Assembly: GCA_965209205.1 (NCBI GenBank)
Contig: CBDBQC010000003.1
Coordinates: 822,882-886,881 of the forward strand
Length of the DNA: 64,000 nucleotides
Origin: Dehalococcoidia bacterium
GTDB lineage: Bacteria > Chloroflexota > Dehalococcoidia > Bin125
Reading direction: 5' to 3'
The notes below the pieces were generated by a model. That model was not told where the DNA came from. It saw only the letters and a list, made by a program, of their open reading frames with translations, and did not search any database. Position numbers and translations under genes: made by a program. Below are positions 3,336 through 33,694 of this stretch, one piece after another; position 1 is the first letter of the stretch; every line of letters starts with the position of its first letter.

Positions 3336-3482
3336 TCTCACCCCTTCACCCCCCTCTCCAGCGAAAGCGCTGGAGAGGGGGCTCGGGTCCCCTCTCCCCA
3401 GGGGAGAGGGGATCCGACCACATCCCTCCGGTCCCCCCTCTCCATCGCTTCAGATGGAGAGGGGGTTAGGGGGTGAGGTTCC
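3336..3482. repeat. Cluster of dispersed palindromic repeats upstream of SBP gene 1
   Basis: Three hairpins: CCCCTCTCCA..TGGAGAGGGG twice and TCCCCTCTCCCC-A-GGGGAGAGGGGA; 3435-3482 is an essentially exact inverted copy of about 33784-33831. Confidence 0.88.
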
Positions 3483-3554
3483 CCCGCGATCGCACGCCGG
3501 ACCCCCTGAGTGACACCGGGGGCCTTCCCACGGCGCCCGAATCCGAAAACTCCG

Positions 3555-3719
3555 GTGGATAACTGGCAAGTACCGTGGATAACCCCATAATTTCCTTCTT
3601 ACTTGACATAGGGGGGGGGGGGGGGGGGGGCTCGATTCTGGATGTGACATACTGCGTGTGCTCACCAGCCCGACGGTCCCCCGGGGGGACCAACGGTAGT
3701 TCCCGGAAAGGAACCGATC
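3555..3719 (+). promoter_or_regulatory. Conserved SBP promoter/leader, copy 1: GTGGATAAC x2, TTGACA, G20 tract, extended -10, two UTR hairpins
   Basis: GTGGATAAC at 3555 and 3575; TTGACA 3603-3608; G 3611-3630; TGaCATACT with CATACT at 3648-3653; the same layout recurs at 31103-31264. Confidence 0.7.
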
Positions 3720-6122
3720 ATGAGCACACCGAAGCATTGGACGACCCTGCGACAGCGAAAGATCTCGCGCCGCACCATGTTGGGAGCCAGCGCCAAAGCC
3801 GGCGTTGGAGCCGCCGGGCTGGCGCTCGTCGGCTGCGGCGACGACGACGAGCCCGACGCCGGGGCCGTGGCGGCGGAACGGGCCGCCTCGGCCGCGGAGG
3901 AGGCCGCCGCCGCGGCCATCGCCGCCGGCGAGGCGCGCGCGGCTGAGACTGAGGCTGCCGCGGACGCCGCCGCTGAGGCGGCTGCCGCCGCGTCCGAGGC
4001 CTCCGCCGCGGCTTCACAGGCGGCCGACGCGGCCGATGCGGCCGCCGCCCTGGCCGCCGAGGCGGCGGAGTCGGAGGACGCCGCCAACGCGGCCGCCGCC
4101 GCCGAAGCCGCGGCCGCGGCTGCTGCGGACGCTGCCGACGCCGCGTCCGCAGCTGGCGACGCCGCGGCCGCTGCCGTGGCGGACGCCGCCGCGCAGGCCG
4201 CTGAGGCCGCCGCCCAAGCCGCGCGCGACGCGGCCGCCGCGGTCGAGGCCGGTACCGCCACCGCCGCCGCAGCGCAGGCCGCCATCGACGGGGCCGCGGC
4301 CGCCGCGGCTGCCGCGGCCGAAGCCGCCGGGGAGGCGTCCGCGGCCGCCGGCGAGGCCGCCGCCACCGCGCAGGAGACCGCCGAAGCCGCGGCCGAGACC
4401 GCGGCCGCGGCCGTCGCCGCCGCCCAGGAGGCCGCCGAGGCGGCCGGGGAGGCCGCCAGCGCGGCTGCGGCCGCCGTCGAGGCCGGCATGGCCATGGCCG
4501 AGGACGCCGAGTTCTCGGTGCCCTGGCCGCTCGACCAGGTCGATCTGAACGCCACGATCGTCGTCGCGCACGACGCCGACGCCGGCGGCCTGGATCCGCG
4601 CAGCAGCGCCAGCTTCGCCAACGACTGGGCCGATGCCGCCGTCTTCAGCGCGGCCCTCCAACTGGATCCCCGCGATAACTCCGCGGCCGACCATCTCGCC
4701 GCGCCTGAGTGGATCGACCCCGCCACGATCCGGGCGGCGGTTGCCCTGGCGCCGTTCCACGACGGCTCGATCCTCACCGCCCACGACATGGCGTTCAGCC
4801 ACGACCGTGTGGCCGGACGCGCCGCCTATCACGACGGCGGCGCGACGACCGATCACCCCAGCGGCTGGGCCCCCGCGAACGCCTGGGCGATGGCGAACGT
4901 CGCCGGGAACGAGGCCGTGGACGATCGCACCTGGGCGATCGATCTCGTCACGCCGAATTTGGGCTTCCTCGCCGTCAGTCTGACCGCGGTCAGCAATACG
5001 TCAGTCATGTCGCGGGCGGACACGGAGCGGCGCGGCGACACCGCGGTGGACCAATCCTTGATGGGCACGGGCCCCTACCGCTTCGTCAGCCACACGGACG
5101 ACGAGGACTTCGTCTTCGAGCGCTTTGAGGACCACTTCCTCCCGATCGACCACCCCGTCCGGGTGCCGCACTACGCCCACAACCAACACCTGACCGTCCT
5201 GGTGCGCCCCGAGCTCCAGTCGCGTCTCGCCGGCCTCGAGGCCGGCGAGATCGACGCCGTGCCGGCCCTGGGCCCCACCGTCGTCGAGCCGTTCCTGGAC
5301 GACCCCGACTTCACCGTCCAGTTCGCCCCCTCCCTCTCGACGGCCATCCACAACCTCTATCCCAACTTGTGGACCCCGACGATGGACGACGGCAGCCCCA
5401 ACCCGTTCCTGGACGTCCGCGTCCGCCGGGCCGCGAACCACGCGATCAACCGCCAGTCCCTGATCGACAACCTCATGGCGGGCGTGGGGGGGCAGGCCTT
5501 CGTCGCGCACAGCAGCACCGAGGGCTTCCCGACGCCGGAGCAGTTGCAGGAAGTCACCTACGCCTACGACCCCGAGCGGGCGAGGCAACTCCTGGCCGAG
5601 GCGGGCTACCCGGACGGCTTCGATACCCCCCTGTACTGGACGCCCGATGTTGGCGGCCCGTCCGCGCCGGACATGGCGCTGGCCGTCGCGCAGGATCTGA
5701 CGGCGGTCGGCATCCGGATCGAGTCCGTGTCGCTCCCCAGCAGCGACTACTTCACCGACGAGTACATGCGCGGCAAAGAAGACGCCAAGCCGGGGCTGTG
5801 GTGGTTCTGGGGCAGCCCCATCCCCGACATCTCCCAGCCGTGGGAGTGTTGCGCCGGGCCGCGTGGCGATTGGGCGATCGCGGCGCCGCCGGACCCCGAC
5901 ATGGACGAGATGTACCTCGCGCAGTCCGTCGAACTCGATCGCGCGCGGCGCCTGGAGATGATCACTGAGTTCATCCTGGAGCACGCGCGGCGCGCGTACT
6001 ACGTCTTCCTCATCGAGCCGCCGGAAGCCGTCATGACCCGCAGCAACGTCAACTGGCCCAAGGGCGGGCCCTTCGGCCTCGTGGACTACACAAGCTCCTT
6101 CGCCATGCAGAAGCGCATCTGA
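3720..6122 (+). CDS. Tat lipoprotein with Ala-rich stalk and family-5 (peptide/nickel-type) ABC solute-binding domain, paralogue 1
   Basis: SRRTML Tat motif; LVGC lipobox (Cys39); about 210 aa Ala/Glu/Asp-rich segment; SBP_bac_5-like motifs FHDGS.LTAHD, GTGPYRF, DVRVRRAANHAINR and YDPERARQLLAEAGYPDGF. Confidence 0.9.
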   Translation: MSTPKHWTTLRQRKISRRTMLGASAKAGVGAAGLALVGCGDDDEPDAGAVAAERAASAAEEAAAAAIAAGEARAAETEAAADAAAEAAAAASEASAAASQAADAADAAAALAAEAAESEDAANAAAAAEAAAAAAADAADAASAAGDAAAAAVADAAAQAAEAAAQAARDAAAAVEAGTATAAAAQAAIDGAAAAAAAAAEAAGEASAAAGEAAATAQETAEAAAETAAAAVAAAQEAAEAAGEAASAAAAAVEAGMAMAEDAEFSVPWPLDQVDLNATIVVAHDADAGGLDPRSSASFANDWADAAVFSAALQLDPRDNSAADHLAAPEWIDPATIRAAVALAPFHDGSILTAHDMAFSHDRVAGRAAYHDGGATTDHPSGWAPANAWAMANVAGNEAVDDRTWAIDLVTPNLGFLAVSLTAVSNTSVMSRADTERRGDTAVDQSLMGTGPYRFVSHTDDEDFVFERFEDHFLPIDHPVRVPHYAHNQHLTVLVRPELQSRLAGLEAGEIDAVPALGPTVVEPFLDDPDFTVQFAPSLSTAIHNLYPNLWTPTMDDGSPNPFLDVRVRRAANHAINRQSLIDNLMAGVGGQAFVAHSSTEGFPTPEQLQEVTYAYDPERARQLLAEAGYPDGFDTPLYWTPDVGGPSAPDMALAVAQDLTAVGIRIESVSLPSSDYFTDEYMRGKEDAKPGLWWFWGSPIPDISQPWECCAGPRGDWAIAAPPDPDMDEMYLAQSVELDRARRLEMITEFILEHARRAYYVFLIEPPEAVMTRSNVNWPKGGPFGLVDYTSSFAMQKRI

Positions 6123-6217: not shown

Positions 6218-7386
6218 GGAGACCTTTGCGTAACTCCCCGGAAGCGGCAGAGTAAGTGGCGGGGGGACGGCAGCGGGAGGGCCGCATGTACCGCCAGACC
6301 GGGGAGCTCACGTTCGCGGACGCGATGATGGCCGAGGGGATGGGCCGCAACGCGGTGCTCGAACGGCTCGACGCCGCGCTCGACTGGGAGCGCATCGCCA
6401 CGATCGTCGGGGAGGTGCATGCGGCGCCGGAGGGCCGGCCCGCCTACCCGCCGCTGTCGATGCTCCGGATCATGCTCCTGCAGCAGTGGTTCGACGCCTC
6501 GGACCCGGCCATCGAAGAGGCGCTGCGCGACCGCATCTCGTTCCGCCGCTTCGCCCGGCTCGGCTGGGACGACGGCACCCCGGACCACTCGACGATCAGC
6601 CGCTTCCGCCACCAGCTCACCGGGCGCGGCCTCGCCGAGCGCGTGTTCGACGAAATCGCCCGCCAGCTCGACGCGCGGGGGCTGCTCGTCAAGGAGGGCA
6701 CGCTCCTGGACGCCACCCTCGTCGAGGCGGCGGTGCGGCGCCCGCCGTACGGGCGCGGCCCCGGCGCGCGCAGTGCGACCGACCCCGACGCCGCGTGGAC
6801 CCGCAAGGGCGGCCGCGCCGCCTTCGGCTACAAGGCGCACCTCGCGATGGACGGGGGCTCCGGCCTGATCCGCCGGGCGCTGCTGACGCCGGCGAACGTG
6901 AACGACACCGAGGTCGCCGACCGCTTGGTGAGCGGCGACGAGGCGGCGGTCTACGCCGACAAGGCGTACGAGTCGAAGGACCGGCGCGCGCGACTGCGGG
7001 CGCAGGGGGTCAAGGACCGGATCATGCACCGCGCGCACAAACACCAGCGGGCGCTGCCGCACTGGCAGCGGCGGCGCAACGCGCTGATCTCGCGGGTGCG
7101 GGCGCCGGTCGAGCAGGTCTTCGGGACGCTGAAGCGCAGCTACGGCTACCGGCGGGTGCGCTACACCGGCCTCGATCGCAACGCGACCGAGCTCTGGCTC
7201 AAGCTCTCGGCCTACAACCTGCGCCGCGCCGAACGCCTCCTCGCCGCGGCGTAGGCGCCGTGCGCCCGCCGCCCGCCGGCGCTCCGTAAGCGCCGCCCGT
7301 AACCGCCCACTCCCGCCTTCCCCGCGCCCCGATCCGCCCGGACGCCGCCCTTTTTCGCGCCCACCCCGAGTAACGCAAAGGTCTCC
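6218..7386 (+). mobile_element. IS5-family insertion sequence (1169 bp)
   Basis: 19-bp terminal inverted repeats GGAGACCTTTGCGTAACTC (6218-6236) and GAGTAACGCAAAGGTCTCC (7368-7386), one mismatch, enclosing an intact DDE transposase; no clear target duplication seen. Confidence 0.93.
6286..7254 (+). CDS. IS5-family DDE transposase
   Basis: GRPAYPPLSMLRIMLLQQWF, PDHSTISRFR, LLDATLV, DPDAAW..KG...FGYKAH, VYADKAY and RAPVEQVFGTLK motifs; ATG after GGGAGG. Confidence 0.94.
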   Translation: MYRQTGELTFADAMMAEGMGRNAVLERLDAALDWERIATIVGEVHAAPEGRPAYPPLSMLRIMLLQQWFDASDPAIEEALRDRISFRRFARLGWDDGTPDHSTISRFRHQLTGRGLAERVFDEIARQLDARGLLVKEGTLLDATLVEAAVRRPPYGRGPGARSATDPDAAWTRKGGRAAFGYKAHLAMDGGSGLIRRALLTPANVNDTEVADRLVSGDEAAVYADKAYESKDRRARLRAQGVKDRIMHRAHKHQRALPHWQRRRNALISRVRAPVEQVFGTLKRSYGYRRVRYTGLDRNATELWLKLSAYNLRRAERLLAAA

Positions 7387-31101: not shown

Positions 31102-31264
31102 TGTGGATAACTTTGCAAATACCGTGGATAACCACCTAATTTCCTTCTTCCTTGACATAGGGGGGGGGGGGGGGTGTCTCTATTGGATGTGTCATACTGC
31201 GCGTGCTCACCAGCCCGACGGTCCCCCGGGGGGACCAACGGTAGTTCCGCGAAAGGAACCGATC
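31102..31264 (+). promoter_or_regulatory. Conserved SBP promoter/leader, copy 2: GTGGATAAC x2, TTGACA, G15 tract, extended -10, two UTR hairpins
   Basis: TGTGGATAA at 31102-31110; GTGGATAAC at 31124; TTGACA 31152-31157; G 31160-31174; TGtCATACT with CATACT at 31193-31198. Confidence 0.7.
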
Positions 31265-33694
31265 ATGAGCATGCCGAAGTATTGGACGACCCTGCGACAG
31301 CGAAAGATCTCGCGTCGCACCATGTTGGGAGCCAGCGCGAAGGCTGGCGTTGGAGCGGCCGGCCTCGCCCTGGTCGGCTGCGGCGACGACGACGGGCCTG
31401 ACGCCGGGACCGCGGCGGCCGAACGGGCCGCCTCGGCCGCGGAGGAGGCCGCCGCCGCGGCCATCGCCGCCGGGGAGGCGCGCGCCGCCGAGACCGAGGC
31501 CGCCGCGGACGCCGCCGCTGAGGCGGCTGCCGCCGCGTCGGAGGCCTCCGCCGCGGCTTCCCAGGCGGCCGACGCGGCCGATGCGGCCGCCGCCCTGGCC
31601 GCCGAGGCGGCCGAGTCGGAGGACGCCGCCAACGCGGCCGCCGCCGCGGAAGCCGCCGCCGCGGCTGCCGCCGACGCGGCCGCCGCCGCATCCGCGGCCG
31701 GCGATCAGGCTGCCGCGGCCGTCGCCGCTGCCGCCGCCGAGGCGGCCGAGGCCGCCGCCCAGGCCGCCCGCGACGCGGCCGCGGCCGTCGAGGCCGGCAC
31801 CGCCACCGCCGCCGCCGCCCAGGCCGCGATCGACGAGGCCGCCGCTGCGGCGGCTGCCGCGGCCGAAGCCGCCGGCGAGGCGTCCGCCGCCGCCGGGCAG
31901 GCCGCCGCCACCGCACAGGAGACCGCCGAAGCCGCGGCCGAGACCGCCGCTGCGGCGGTCGCCGCGGCCGAAGAGGCCGCCGATGCGGCCCGCGAGGCCG
32001 CCGACGCCGTTGAGCAGACGAGGAACGTCGCCGCCTCCTTGACCGCCGAGGCCGAGTTCGTGGAGTGGAGCGTGCCCTGGCCGATCGACGAGATCGACCT
32101 GGACGCCACGATCACCTTCGCTATCCCCGCCGACACGGGGGGCCTGGATCCGCAACGGGTCGGCAGTGATTCGAACTTCACCTCGCACTCGGCCGTCCAC
32201 GACAGCCTCGTGGAGATCTCGCCCCTGACCAAGGATCTGCTCCCGCATCTCGCCACGCTGGAGTGGGCCGACGAGGGCGCCACGTGCATCGGCACCGTCA
32301 ACGGGGCGATGTTCCACGACGGCTCCATGCTCACCGCCCACGACTTGGTCTTCACCTACGACCGCATGGGCGGCGTCGCCGAATACCACCAGGGCGGCGA
32401 GACGAGCGACCACCCGGCCGGCTGGCAATCCGTGCGGCCGATTTGGGGGGCCTCTTACTGGCTCCGCAACGAGGCGGTCGACGACACCACCTGGGTGATC
32501 GAGCTGCCGGACTTCGACGCGAGCCTCTGGGGCACCATCGGCATCGCCCCCAATGTGATGGTCATGTCCCAGGCGGACGTCGAGCGGCGCGGCGATCACG
32601 CGGTGGATAACCACCCGATCGGCACGGGGCCCTTCCGCTTCGTCAGCCACACCGACGAAGAGGACTTCGTCTTCGAGCGCTTCGAGGACCACTTCAATCC
32701 GGTCGACCACCCCATCCGGGTGCCGCACTACCCCCACCACAAGGACCTGATCGCTCTGGTGCGCCCCGAGTTGCAGTCGCGCATCGCCGGCATCGAAGCG
32801 GGCGAGATCGACGCGGCCGCGGAGTTGGGCGTCAACGCCGTCGCGCCGTTCCTCGACGACCCCGACTTCACGGTCCAGTTCGTCCCCGGGCTGGGGTGGG
32901 CGCTGCACAACATCTACCCCAACCTCTGGAGGGAGACGCGGGACGACGGCACGCCCAACCCGTGGATGGACGAGCGCGTCCGCATCGCCGCGAACCTGTC
33001 CATCAACCGCGCGGCCATCGCCGAAGGCCTGCTGCTGGGCGCGCCGCCGATCGAGCCCATGTATGGGTTCCGCGGCGTCGTGGGCTACCCCAGCGAGGAG
33101 GACGCGCGGGCGGCGGACTGGGGCTACGACCCCGATCGGGCGCGGGCGCTGCTCGCGGAGGCCGGCTACCCGGACGGCTTCGACGAGACGCTGTACTACA
33201 CGACCGACTGGGGCGGCGACCTCCAGGAAGACCTCGCGCTGACCACGGCGCAGATGCTGACCGCGGCCGGCATCCGGACCACCCCCGTCTTGCTCCCCGG
33301 AGGCGAGTACTTCACCGACGCCTACGCCCGCGGCGGTCCGACGGGGACCGCTCCCGTCGGGCTCTATTGGTGGTGGGCGAACAACCAGGCGGACGCCGGC
33401 GTGATGTGGACCTGCTGCGCCAACTCCGAGGGCTTCTTCACCATGGCGATCCATGGCGACCCGGTCCTCGACGAGCTCTTCTCGCAGAGCAAGGTCGAGC
33501 GCGATCCCGAGCGGCGCAACGAGCTCACCTCGGAGTTGTTCCTGCGGCACAAGCGGGGCGCCTGGTTCATCAACGTCATCGAGCCGCCGGACGGCGTGCT
33601 CACCCGCGGCGACGTCAACTGGCCGGTGGGTGGACCCTTCGGCGGGCTCAGCTTCCTCAACACGTACTCCATCCAGAAGCGCCGGGCCACCTAA
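31265..33694 (+). CDS. Tat lipoprotein with Ala-rich stalk and family-5 ABC solute-binding domain, paralogue 2
   Basis: Same Tat motif, lipobox and stalk as 3720-6122; FHDGSMLTAHD, GTGPFRF and YDPDRARALLAEAGYPDGF motifs. Confidence 0.9.
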   Translation: MSMPKYWTTLRQRKISRRTMLGASAKAGVGAAGLALVGCGDDDGPDAGTAAAERAASAAEEAAAAAIAAGEARAAETEAAADAAAEAAAAASEASAAASQAADAADAAAALAAEAAESEDAANAAAAAEAAAAAAADAAAAASAAGDQAAAAVAAAAAEAAEAAAQAARDAAAAVEAGTATAAAAQAAIDEAAAAAAAAAEAAGEASAAAGQAAATAQETAEAAAETAAAAVAAAEEAADAAREAADAVEQTRNVAASLTAEAEFVEWSVPWPIDEIDLDATITFAIPADTGGLDPQRVGSDSNFTSHSAVHDSLVEISPLTKDLLPHLATLEWADEGATCIGTVNGAMFHDGSMLTAHDLVFTYDRMGGVAEYHQGGETSDHPAGWQSVRPIWGASYWLRNEAVDDTTWVIELPDFDASLWGTIGIAPNVMVMSQADVERRGDHAVDNHPIGTGPFRFVSHTDEEDFVFERFEDHFNPVDHPIRVPHYPHHKDLIALVRPELQSRIAGIEAGEIDAAAELGVNAVAPFLDDPDFTVQFVPGLGWALHNIYPNLWRETRDDGTPNPWMDERVRIAANLSINRAAIAEGLLLGAPPIEPMYGFRGVVGYPSEEDARAADWGYDPDRARALLAEAGYPDGFDETLYYTTDWGGDLQEDLALTTAQMLTAAGIRTTPVLLPGGEYFTDAYARGGPTGTAPVGLYWWWANNQADAGVMWTCCANSEGFFTMAIHGDPVLDELFSQSKVERDPERRNELTSELFLRHKRGAWFINVIEPPDGVLTRGDVNWPVGGPFGGLSFLNTYSIQKRRAT

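Follow-up and report, generated by a model that had tools for sequence, protein, structure and literature searches.

Poly-G tracts of variable length in a promoter cassette shared by 25 binding-protein genes of an uncultured Dehalococcoidia bacterium

Introduction

Why would a bacterium carry a run of 15 or 20 guanines in the promoter of a binding-protein gene, and does the length of the run matter? The question is raised by a 64,000-nucleotide (nt) stretch of DNA, hereafter the window, from an uncultured Dehalococcoidia bacterium (Chloroflexota; GenBank assembly GCA_965209205.1, contig CBDBQC010000003.1). The window is C3:822882-886881 in an assembly of 2.71 Mb that comprises 4 contigs, has a GC content of 72% and is 89% complete. 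It holds two paralogous genes for substrate-binding proteins (SBPs), each with a poly-G tract in its upstream region. The initial annotation of the window proposed that slipped-strand changes in these tracts set the expression of each paralogue, either through the spacing of the -35 and -10 elements or by re-phasing upstream sites against the -10, and it named G-quadruplex formation as an alternative role. Contingency loci of this kind are a textbook trait of host-adapted pathogens with small AT-rich or neutral genomes. We followed up the annotation computationally in the window, in the whole genome (G000), and in related genomes, using our own gene calls based on open reading frames (ORFs). 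Results showed that the feature is real, non-random, and part of a system that is both genome-wide and lineage-wide; the phase-variation idea is plausible and gains comparative support.

Results and Discussion

The two window copies

The cassette preceding SBP paralogue 1 (copy A) reads CTTGACATA-(G)20-CTCGATTCTGGATG-TGACATACTG at 3602-3654, of which the CTTGACATA-(G)20 part occupies 3602-3630. The cassette preceding SBP paralogue 2 (copy B) reads CTTGACATA-(G)15-TGTCTCTATTGGATG-TGTCATACTG at 31151-31199, with the CTTGACATA-(G)15 part at 31151-31174. In both copies, all parts of which lie on the plus strand, the poly-G is followed on its 3' side by GGATGTG(A/T)CATACTG. Their upstream regions are 91% identical over ~360 nt, and the sole long indel is the tract. 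The annotation was accurate in placing G20 (3611-3630) and G15 (31160-31174) at the equivalent place in the two promoters, which are two copies of one cassette, and in describing them as the only long homopolymers of the window: no other run of at least 10 of any base was found, and G10 words number 17 against 0.56 expected from shuffled sequences. Its distances from TTGACA to CATACT, 39 bp in copy A (3603-3608 to 3648-3653) and 35 bp in copy B (31152-31157 to 31193-31198), were likewise correct. The SBP assignment also stood, as both runs precede ORFs of ~800 amino acids (aa) that match PF00496 (SBP_bac_5) with E values of 1e-49 and 2e-40 (170 and 139 bits, cut-off 32.4) and that contain an RR motif and a lipobox.

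Copy A starts with two GTGGATAAC repeats in direct orientation at 3555-3563 and 3575-3583, with a distance of 20 bp between them. The pair, conserved in the 19 class-1 copies (defined below), is a candidate for a far-upstream regulator site. An AT-rich block (3584-3610) follows, the 3' end of which is TTGACATA (TTGACA at 3603-3608) and the ACATA box of which abuts the tract. Downstream of the tract are a 14-nt linker and the extended -10 TGACATACT (3631-3653; TG at 3645-3646), the putative core promoter P1, and then a conserved leader of ~65 nt (3654-3719) with a GGTCCCCCGGGGGGACC hairpin and a GGAAAGGAAC ribosome site. The leader ends at the gene for SBP paralogue 1 (3720-6122, 800 aa), which encodes an RR motif of the twin-arginine translocation (Tat) type, the lipobox LVGC, an Ala/Glu-rich stalk of ~230 aa, and the SBP_bac_5 domain. 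Copy B is built alike, with paired GTGGATAAC repeats (31103-31111 and 31124-31132, 21 bp apart), an AT-rich block ending in TTGACATA (31133-31159; TTGACA at 31152-31157), the tract, a 15-nt linker and extended -10 TGTCATACT (31175-31198; CATACT at 31193-31198), a conserved leader (31199-31264), and the gene for SBP paralogue 2 (31265-33694, 809 aa), which has the same signal peptide, lipobox and stalk cassette as paralogue 1 and an SBP_bac_5 domain. Both genes are orphans; the next gene encodes an insertion sequence (IS) transposase in the first case and an epimerase in the second.

A promoter module repeated 25 times

When the module was defined as TGnCATACTG plus the leader with an upstream G run, 25 copies were found in the genome. 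A run of 5-23 G lies upstream of every copy; it is at least 9 long in 23 of the 25, comprises at least 15 consecutive G in 14, and is shorter than 15 in the other 11. All 25 copies precede paralogous SBP genes, at a distance of 38-75 nt. The remaining long tracts of the genome lie mostly at genes for other exported proteins (see below).

The 25 SBP genes share a common 5' start, encoding a Tat-type signal (RQRKISRRTMLGASAKAG), a lipobox (LALVGCGDDD), and the Ala/Glu-rich stalk, so that median identity among module SBPs is 88% over the first 50 residues versus 32% for the binding domains. The module SBPs have in common this stalk of ~230 residues (SBP1 residues ~40-280, window 3840-4560), which connects the lipobox to the binding domain and is composed almost wholly of Ala, Glu, Asp, Ser, Thr, and Gly. 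If it forms a helix, the binding domain would be ~30 nm off the membrane. In total, the genome has 46 PF00496 matches and 64 matches to the permease family PF00528. Two PF00528 permease genes follow ~14 of the 25 module SBP genes, which indicates that the module promoter is likely to drive, for the most part, whole ATP-binding cassette (ABC) importer operons. No clear pattern was seen on inspection between promoter spacing (D, defined below) and status as an operon, orphan, or pseudogene. Truncated or split SBP frames follow two module copies, at C3:78696 (367 aa) and C3:228555 (336 aa). In the former the tract has decayed as well (G6), a hint that purity of the tract may be lost together with the gene.

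Promoter anatomy and spacing

The anatomy of the cassette was derived from an alignment and a distance table of all 25 copies. TGnCATACTG is invariant in all of them. Since an extended -10 of the same form (TGGTATACTG; TGnTATACTG) occurs directly before a transfer RNA gene and also before other genes, we infer that TGnCATACT is the core promoter and that the leader is ~65 nt long. An extended -10 promoter needs no -35 hexamer. Because the tract ends at a fixed 13-15 nt before the extended -10 in 25/25 copies, the G's fill the -35 position, which at a 17-bp spacer reads GGGGGG or GGGGGT (the last six G's of the tract). On the 5' side, an ACATA box (CAATA in one copy) lies directly at the tract or within 2-3 nt of it, again in all 25. 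Its context is TTGACATA in 19 copies (class 1) and GAAACATAAC in six (class 2), and further upstream are an AT-rich stretch and paired TATCCAC-type repeats. The tract thereby lies between a conserved upstream block and the invariant extended -10 of a promoter predicted from sequence. The repeat GTGGATAAC (reverse complement, GTTATCCAC) is near the DnaA-box consensus, and pairs of it are conserved in all class-1 cassettes; the six class-2 cassettes have TATCCATC instead, in the opposite orientation, and TTATCCACA or TTGTCCACA is found upstream of two promoters of relatives (L027, L023). The paired repeats are a candidate common regulator site of the whole SBP regulon.

To describe spacing, we used D, the distance from ACATA to TG. 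It ranges from 27 to 40, with a mode of 30-31, and falls between 27 and 32 in 21 of the 25 copies; copy B has a modal D (30), and copy A is an upper outlier within the family (D = 34), as is the copy at C3:180354 (D = 37). One decayed run, tggtagtttgggggg, has D = 30 and precedes a gene that seems to be truncated; another, at C2:319835, is down to G5, has D = 27, and stands before an intact operon. The narrow range of D and its retention in copies with decayed runs suggest that spacing is under selection.

These distances bear on the first of the two mechanisms that had been offered in the annotation. In each of the 25 copies the spacer between TTGACA and the -10 hexamer is D + 5, i.e., 32-45 bp, and even a cassette free of G's would leave 19 bp, so TTGACA cannot be the -35 of this promoter, and we reject a mechanism based on -35/-10 spacing for this module. 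A G-quadruplex is also unlikely as a general role, considering that 11 of the 25 copies have fewer than 15 consecutive G and that the orthologue in the sister species has poly-C on the sense strand (see below).

A consensus scan also returned a sigma-70-like match in copy A, CTGGCA-17-CATAAT, on the plus strand at 3563-3591 (family consensus, TTGGTA-17-CATAAT). The second GTGGATAAC repeat is inside the spacer of this match, from which transcription would start ~10 nt before the poly-G.

Variability of tract length

Length change was assessed in the 77 pairs of module copies with a flank identity of 90% or more over 300 nt. D differed in 84% of the pairs, by 2.4 nt on average. Gaps in the flanks amounted to 2.0 columns per 300 nt, which makes length change per nucleotide 21 times greater in the tract than in the flanks. 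Even the closest pair, with flanks 95.7% identical and free of gaps, differs by 10 nt. Tract lengths also differ among orthologues (G20, C21, and C9AC11; see below). The interpretation given in the annotation is thus supported in part, namely as to a shared promoter in which length is by far the most variable feature of the cassette, with contingency-type tracts elsewhere in the lineage. The version of it that rested on -35/-10 spacing is not supported, and the version based on re-phasing of upstream sites would fit.

Long homopolymers in the genome

Run lengths across the whole genome were compared with the expectation of an independent-base model for G or C runs. Runs of exactly 7 were observed 266 times (1699 expected) and runs of exactly 8 only six times (609 expected, a ~100-fold depletion). 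In all, 32 runs were at least 9 long. Runs of at least 12 numbered 24 (15.7 expected), and runs of at least 15 numbered 20, against an expectation of 0.72, an enrichment of ~28-fold. The genome thus purges ordinary mutable runs and retains very long ones at chosen sites. Nearly all runs of at least 15 lie in promoters or at the 5' ends of genes for exported proteins. Five that do not belong to the module either shortly precede a gene for a secreted protein or lie at its 5' end: G17 at C4:675721, G23 at C3:95846, G26 at C3:895225, G32 at C4:230714, and C21 at C3:49745. Four of the five targets are secreted proteins of ~210-485 aa, two of them with fn3 matches, and one is a secreted protein of 436 aa with a sub-threshold fn3 match.

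Several of those secreted proteins share a repeated 'GTPxLAIDMDPAxWGTK' domain together with fn3 matches. The ORF at C3:895225 reads through its tract as nine prolines ahead of the signal peptide. Only two long tracts have no obvious exported-protein neighbour, one being C16 at C1:68635 and the other G10-C-G11 at C4:313894-313915, between a gene end and an enoyl-CoA hydratase-like gene.

Tracts and promoters in relatives

Tracts of at least 12 were found in 59 of 61 genomes of the same family. Tracts of at least 14 number 21 in G000 itself and 10-20 in three other family members; of 61 genomes sampled across the class, 39 have none. The complete genome of a sister species (G001) has 27 tracts of at least 12, most of which fall into several distinct families of promoters that precede SBP genes of this kind. 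One of these families reads GGACATAAC-(G)14-17, then 16 nt, then TAGACT, its ACATA being also 5' of the tract. Other G001 families have poly-C on the sense strand, in the order AT-rich block, (C)12-26, GATC, TATACT. The TAnACT-type -10 of the relatives has the same distance to the leader as in the module.

The SBP1 orthologue in G001 is 94-100% identical to its G000 counterpart over residues 301-800 and 97% over the 500-aa binding domain. Its DNA matches that of G000 from the -10 onward; upstream is an unrelated block and then C21, 4 nt from TATACT (C21-GATC-TATACT). A near-identical binding domain, an unrelated promoter, and a tract on the other strand would imply that promoter parts were recently exchanged between cassette types in this orthologue pair (L096 in G000, L097 in G001). 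An 83% identical orthologue in G004 has C9AC11 followed by GATC-TATGCT, and a 70% identical relative in G002 reads TTGACC-TG-C11-TAGGCGT-TATACC, with a 20-bp spacer. Related promoters include TTGATT-T-C9-TAGACCT-CATAAT (17-bp spacer) and TTGACC-GA-C10-TGTCGGT-CATAAT (19-bp spacer), and a homopolymer between the -35 and -10, as in Neisseria porA, occurs only in the related promoters L023, L027, and L099. Through these promoter swaps a long G/C homopolymer just upstream of the -10 has been kept, whichever strand it is on, with offsets that range from 4 to 17 nt and, in some promoters, in the classical spacer position. Its retention in this manner argues for a property of the duplex, such as length or mutability, as the likelier basis of its role, over a strand-specific quadruplex or a role at the RNA level.

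We also examined 30 tracts of at least 14 from three other genera (G008, G013, and G045). Many were located between the start codon and the hydrophobic core of the signal peptide, or just after it, in genes for secreted proteins or lipoproteins. In some the tract is in frame (L067, L070, L073, L079), and paralogues are out of frame by one base (L082, L085, L088, L091, L081, L072, L083). This looks like the classical translational pattern of contingency loci, with the proviso that errors of length in the assemblies could create or hide single-base shifts.

Exact-protein look-up in other collections returned no protein identical to SBP1 or to the leuB product, and a scan of metagenome contigs with the -10 plus leader pattern gave no match. 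A distant relative, bin125, came from the sponge Aplysina aerophoba (PMC5649159). In several related assemblies (G051, G066, G092, G097, and others), poly-G is found at the starts or ends of contigs; the tracts probably break assemblies of this lineage.

Proposed mechanism and competing explanations

We lean, with confidence a little above even, toward reading the poly-G run as a hypermutable spacer that, by slippage, tunes or switches each operon, within a fim-like promoter cassette of 25 stalked Tat-lipoprotein SBP genes. The anatomy described above fits a tract that would determine how far upstream sites lie from the extended -10 and on which face of the helix. As proposed, the run would hold the upstream block (the ACATA/TTGACATA box, the AT-rich stretch, and the paired TATCCAC-type repeats) 27-40 nt from the -10, and slipped-strand mispairing during replication would add or remove G's. 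Each G gained or lost would shift the block by 3.4 Å and ~34 degrees, which would alter the contact of an upstream-bound activator, or of the RNA polymerase alpha subunit, with the polymerase. Transcription of that operon could then be raised, lowered, or shut off, in a heritable and reversible way, and over 25 loci the population would become mixed in its repertoire of uptake and surface proteins. The sequences themselves show the anatomy, the number of copies, the hypervariable length among paralogues and orthologues, the conservation of total spacing, and the use of such tracts throughout the lineage. The start of transcription, slippage in a population, action by the upstream element, and an effect of length on expression are steps that we infer.

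Several points weigh against this reading. With six or more G's the core promoter sequence is the same whatever the length of the run, so length matters only if an upstream element acts. The narrow range of D could mean that one working length is kept, i.e., tuning rather than switching. Exact tract lengths are provisional, as those in the assembly may be off by a base or more, and the canonical-looking promoter at 3563-3591 could put the tract inside a transcript. Mismatch repair, moreover, is not missing, as domain I of MutS is present in all seven genomes of the genus; the same finding rules out that the tracts are a by-product of lost mismatch repair.

The presence of mismatch repair would also suit a fixed promoter element, in which poly(dG).poly(dC) is needed as a stiff, A-like substitute for the -35, as a site for a protein specific to the lineage, or as a triplex or quadruplex sensitive to supercoiling, and in which differences in length are tolerated noise. 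Such an element would explain why several promoter families that are unrelated to one another, as well as orthologues, retain the tract, why its last G's sit at the -35 position, and why tract lengths cluster. We nevertheless consider it unlikely, if deserving of more weight than the explanations that follow. Genes of an intact operon can have a decayed tract that keeps its spacing (C2:319835; G5, D = 27), and a tract that occurs on the sense strand as either G or C, and either 4 or ~17 nt from the -10, poorly fits a single sequence- or strand-specific structure. Too few consecutive G's for a three-layer quadruplex are present in the 11 copies with runs shorter than 15, and the lineage also has tracts within reading frames, where only frame-shifting makes sense. 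We judge it improbable that the tract is instead transcribed from the upstream promoter (TTGGTA-17-CATAAT; 3563-3591), as a real or second start, and acts at ~+10 to +30 through an RNA quadruplex, an R-loop, or polymerase slippage. The scan gave no other sigma-70 consensus hit in 3400-3760, all 19 class-1 copies conserve the match, and a similar TTTACA-16-TAACAT precedes the G tract in one G001 family; however, the six class-2 copies and the poly-C families of G001, all of which share the downstream -10 and leader, lack it, and poly-C versions would form no RNA quadruplex. Since the whole cassette is conserved, conservation of the site is not diagnostic.

A quadruplex upstream of Neisseria pilE is a precedent for the initiation of recombination, and the G run might similarly cause breaks and thereby gene conversion across the 25 cassettes. 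Both the homogenised 5' ends (88% identity among paralogues, compared with 32% for binding domains) and the exchange of promoter parts between orthologues of the two species would then be accounted for. But the tract is in the middle of the block of homology, not at its edge, G000 and G001 become homologous again from the -10 rather than from the tract, and many tracts are too short for a stable quadruplex, so that we regard this explanation as very improbable. Least credible of all, to the point of being nearly dismissed, is an artefact of assembly or base calling. Homopolymer lengths are the weakest point of a long-read consensus, and poly-G occurs at contig ends in some relatives; against this, the run is equally placed in 25 paralogous promoters inside long contigs, and equivalent runs occur in many independently assembled genomes, which leaves the exact lengths alone as possibly artefactual.

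Comparison with known systems

The hypermutable spacer that we favor has parallels in several well-studied bacteria. The fim2, fim3, fimX, and fimN promoters of Bordetella comprise a conserved box, a C-stretch of 10-22, and a -10, and the length of the stretch differs by paralogue and strain and changes transcription (PMC1891110). The cassette described here is similarly composed of an ACATA box, G5-23, a fixed 13-15 nt, and TGnCATACT in 25/25 copies of a paralogous family, and Bordetella fim has the closest known layout. The two differ in that BvgA is the activator in Bordetella, the paired repeats here being candidate sites, and in that 25 loci are involved rather than 4. The products, too, are binding proteins and ABC importers instead of fimbriae, and the host is an uncultured member of the Dehalococcoidia.

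In Neisseria meningitidis, poly-C of opc reportedly replaces the -35, and poly-G of porA is said to lie in the -35/-10 spacer, according to work by Sarkari et al. in 1994 and van der Ende et al. in 1995, both cited in PMC5084427. The present tract resembles that of opc in being a homopolymer directly upstream of a good -10, at the -35 position. It is unlike that of porA, as TTGACA of the module copies in the window is 35 and 39 bp from the -10, and porA-like C9-C11 in spacers of 17-20 bp occur only in relatives.

The vlp genes of Mycoplasma hyorhinis encode a family of surface lipoproteins with a conserved 5' cassette (promoter, leader, and signal peptide), poly-A between the -35 and -10, and repeat-based external domains; the Vlp system is cited in PMC11868660. 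P78 of Mycoplasma fermentans is a phase-variable substrate-binding lipoprotein of an ABC transporter, with poly-A in its coding region. Like the Vlp proteins, the module SBPs are a family of lipoproteins whose genes combine a conserved 5' cassette with a homopolymer in the promoter, and P78 provides the precedent for a phase-variable binding lipoprotein. In contrast to both, the protein bodies here are 25 divergent SBP_bac_5 domains (32% median identity) that mostly head importer operons.

The 'phasomes' of Campylobacter and Helicobacter comprise tens of G or C homopolymers per small genome, intragenic and intergenic, concentrated at surface-related genes (PMC6321876, PMC8355987). Those genomes belong to host-adapted Campylobacterota and are AT-rich, with tracts of G8-G13 that are mostly coding, whereas here the genome is 72% GC and the tracts reach G32 and lie mostly in promoters. 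Literature searches returned nothing relevant on homopolymeric tracts, contingency loci, or phase variation in Chloroflexi, Dehalococcoidia, or SAR202.

Possible significance

If the comparison is apt, the device known from contingency loci operates at large scale in an uncultured Chloroflexota bacterium of 72% GC, with more than 30 tracts of up to G32 in 2.7 Mb, wired mainly to nutrient importers. Going further, we propose tentatively, and with less than even confidence, that a whole family of uncultured Dehalococcoidia, possibly sponge-associated, runs such a phasome, composed of promoter tracts on ~25 importer or stalked-SBP operons per genome and coding tracts on genes for secreted fn3-type proteins and lipoproteins. 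Each cell line would then have its own heritable and reversible combination of uptake systems and surface proteins. Such a system would be the first of contingency loci in Chloroflexota, and the first to vary mainly nutrient-uptake specificity and not antigenicity. Its benefit might be bet-hedging with respect to dissolved organic matter, or evasion of phages or host cells able to recognise the SBPs on their 30-nm stalks. Provided that tract length tunes transcription, individual cells of a strain would display different members of the set of 25 binding proteins. This would change how uptake potential is read from metagenome-assembled genomes, and would explain assembly breaks and apparent frameshifts in genomes of this group.

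Other features near the cassettes

Within 3400-3800, no Rfam family matched the leader at E values up to 1, i.e., the search gave no riboswitch or other known RNA. A small divergent ORF that starts with ATG at 3588 of the minus strand and has an AGGAA ribosome site was rejected as a gene, since it has only 40 codons and ends within repeat DNA. Directly 3' of orphan SBP gene 1 is a DDE transposase gene (6256-7254; PF01609 and DUF772). Palindromic repeats of the repetitive extragenic palindromic (REP) type (ccctctccag...ctggagaggggg, then gttagggggtgaggttccc) occur at 3336-3470 and flank most copies of the cassette. REP-type palindromes also flank the cassette of the G001 orthologue, whose promoter part differs.
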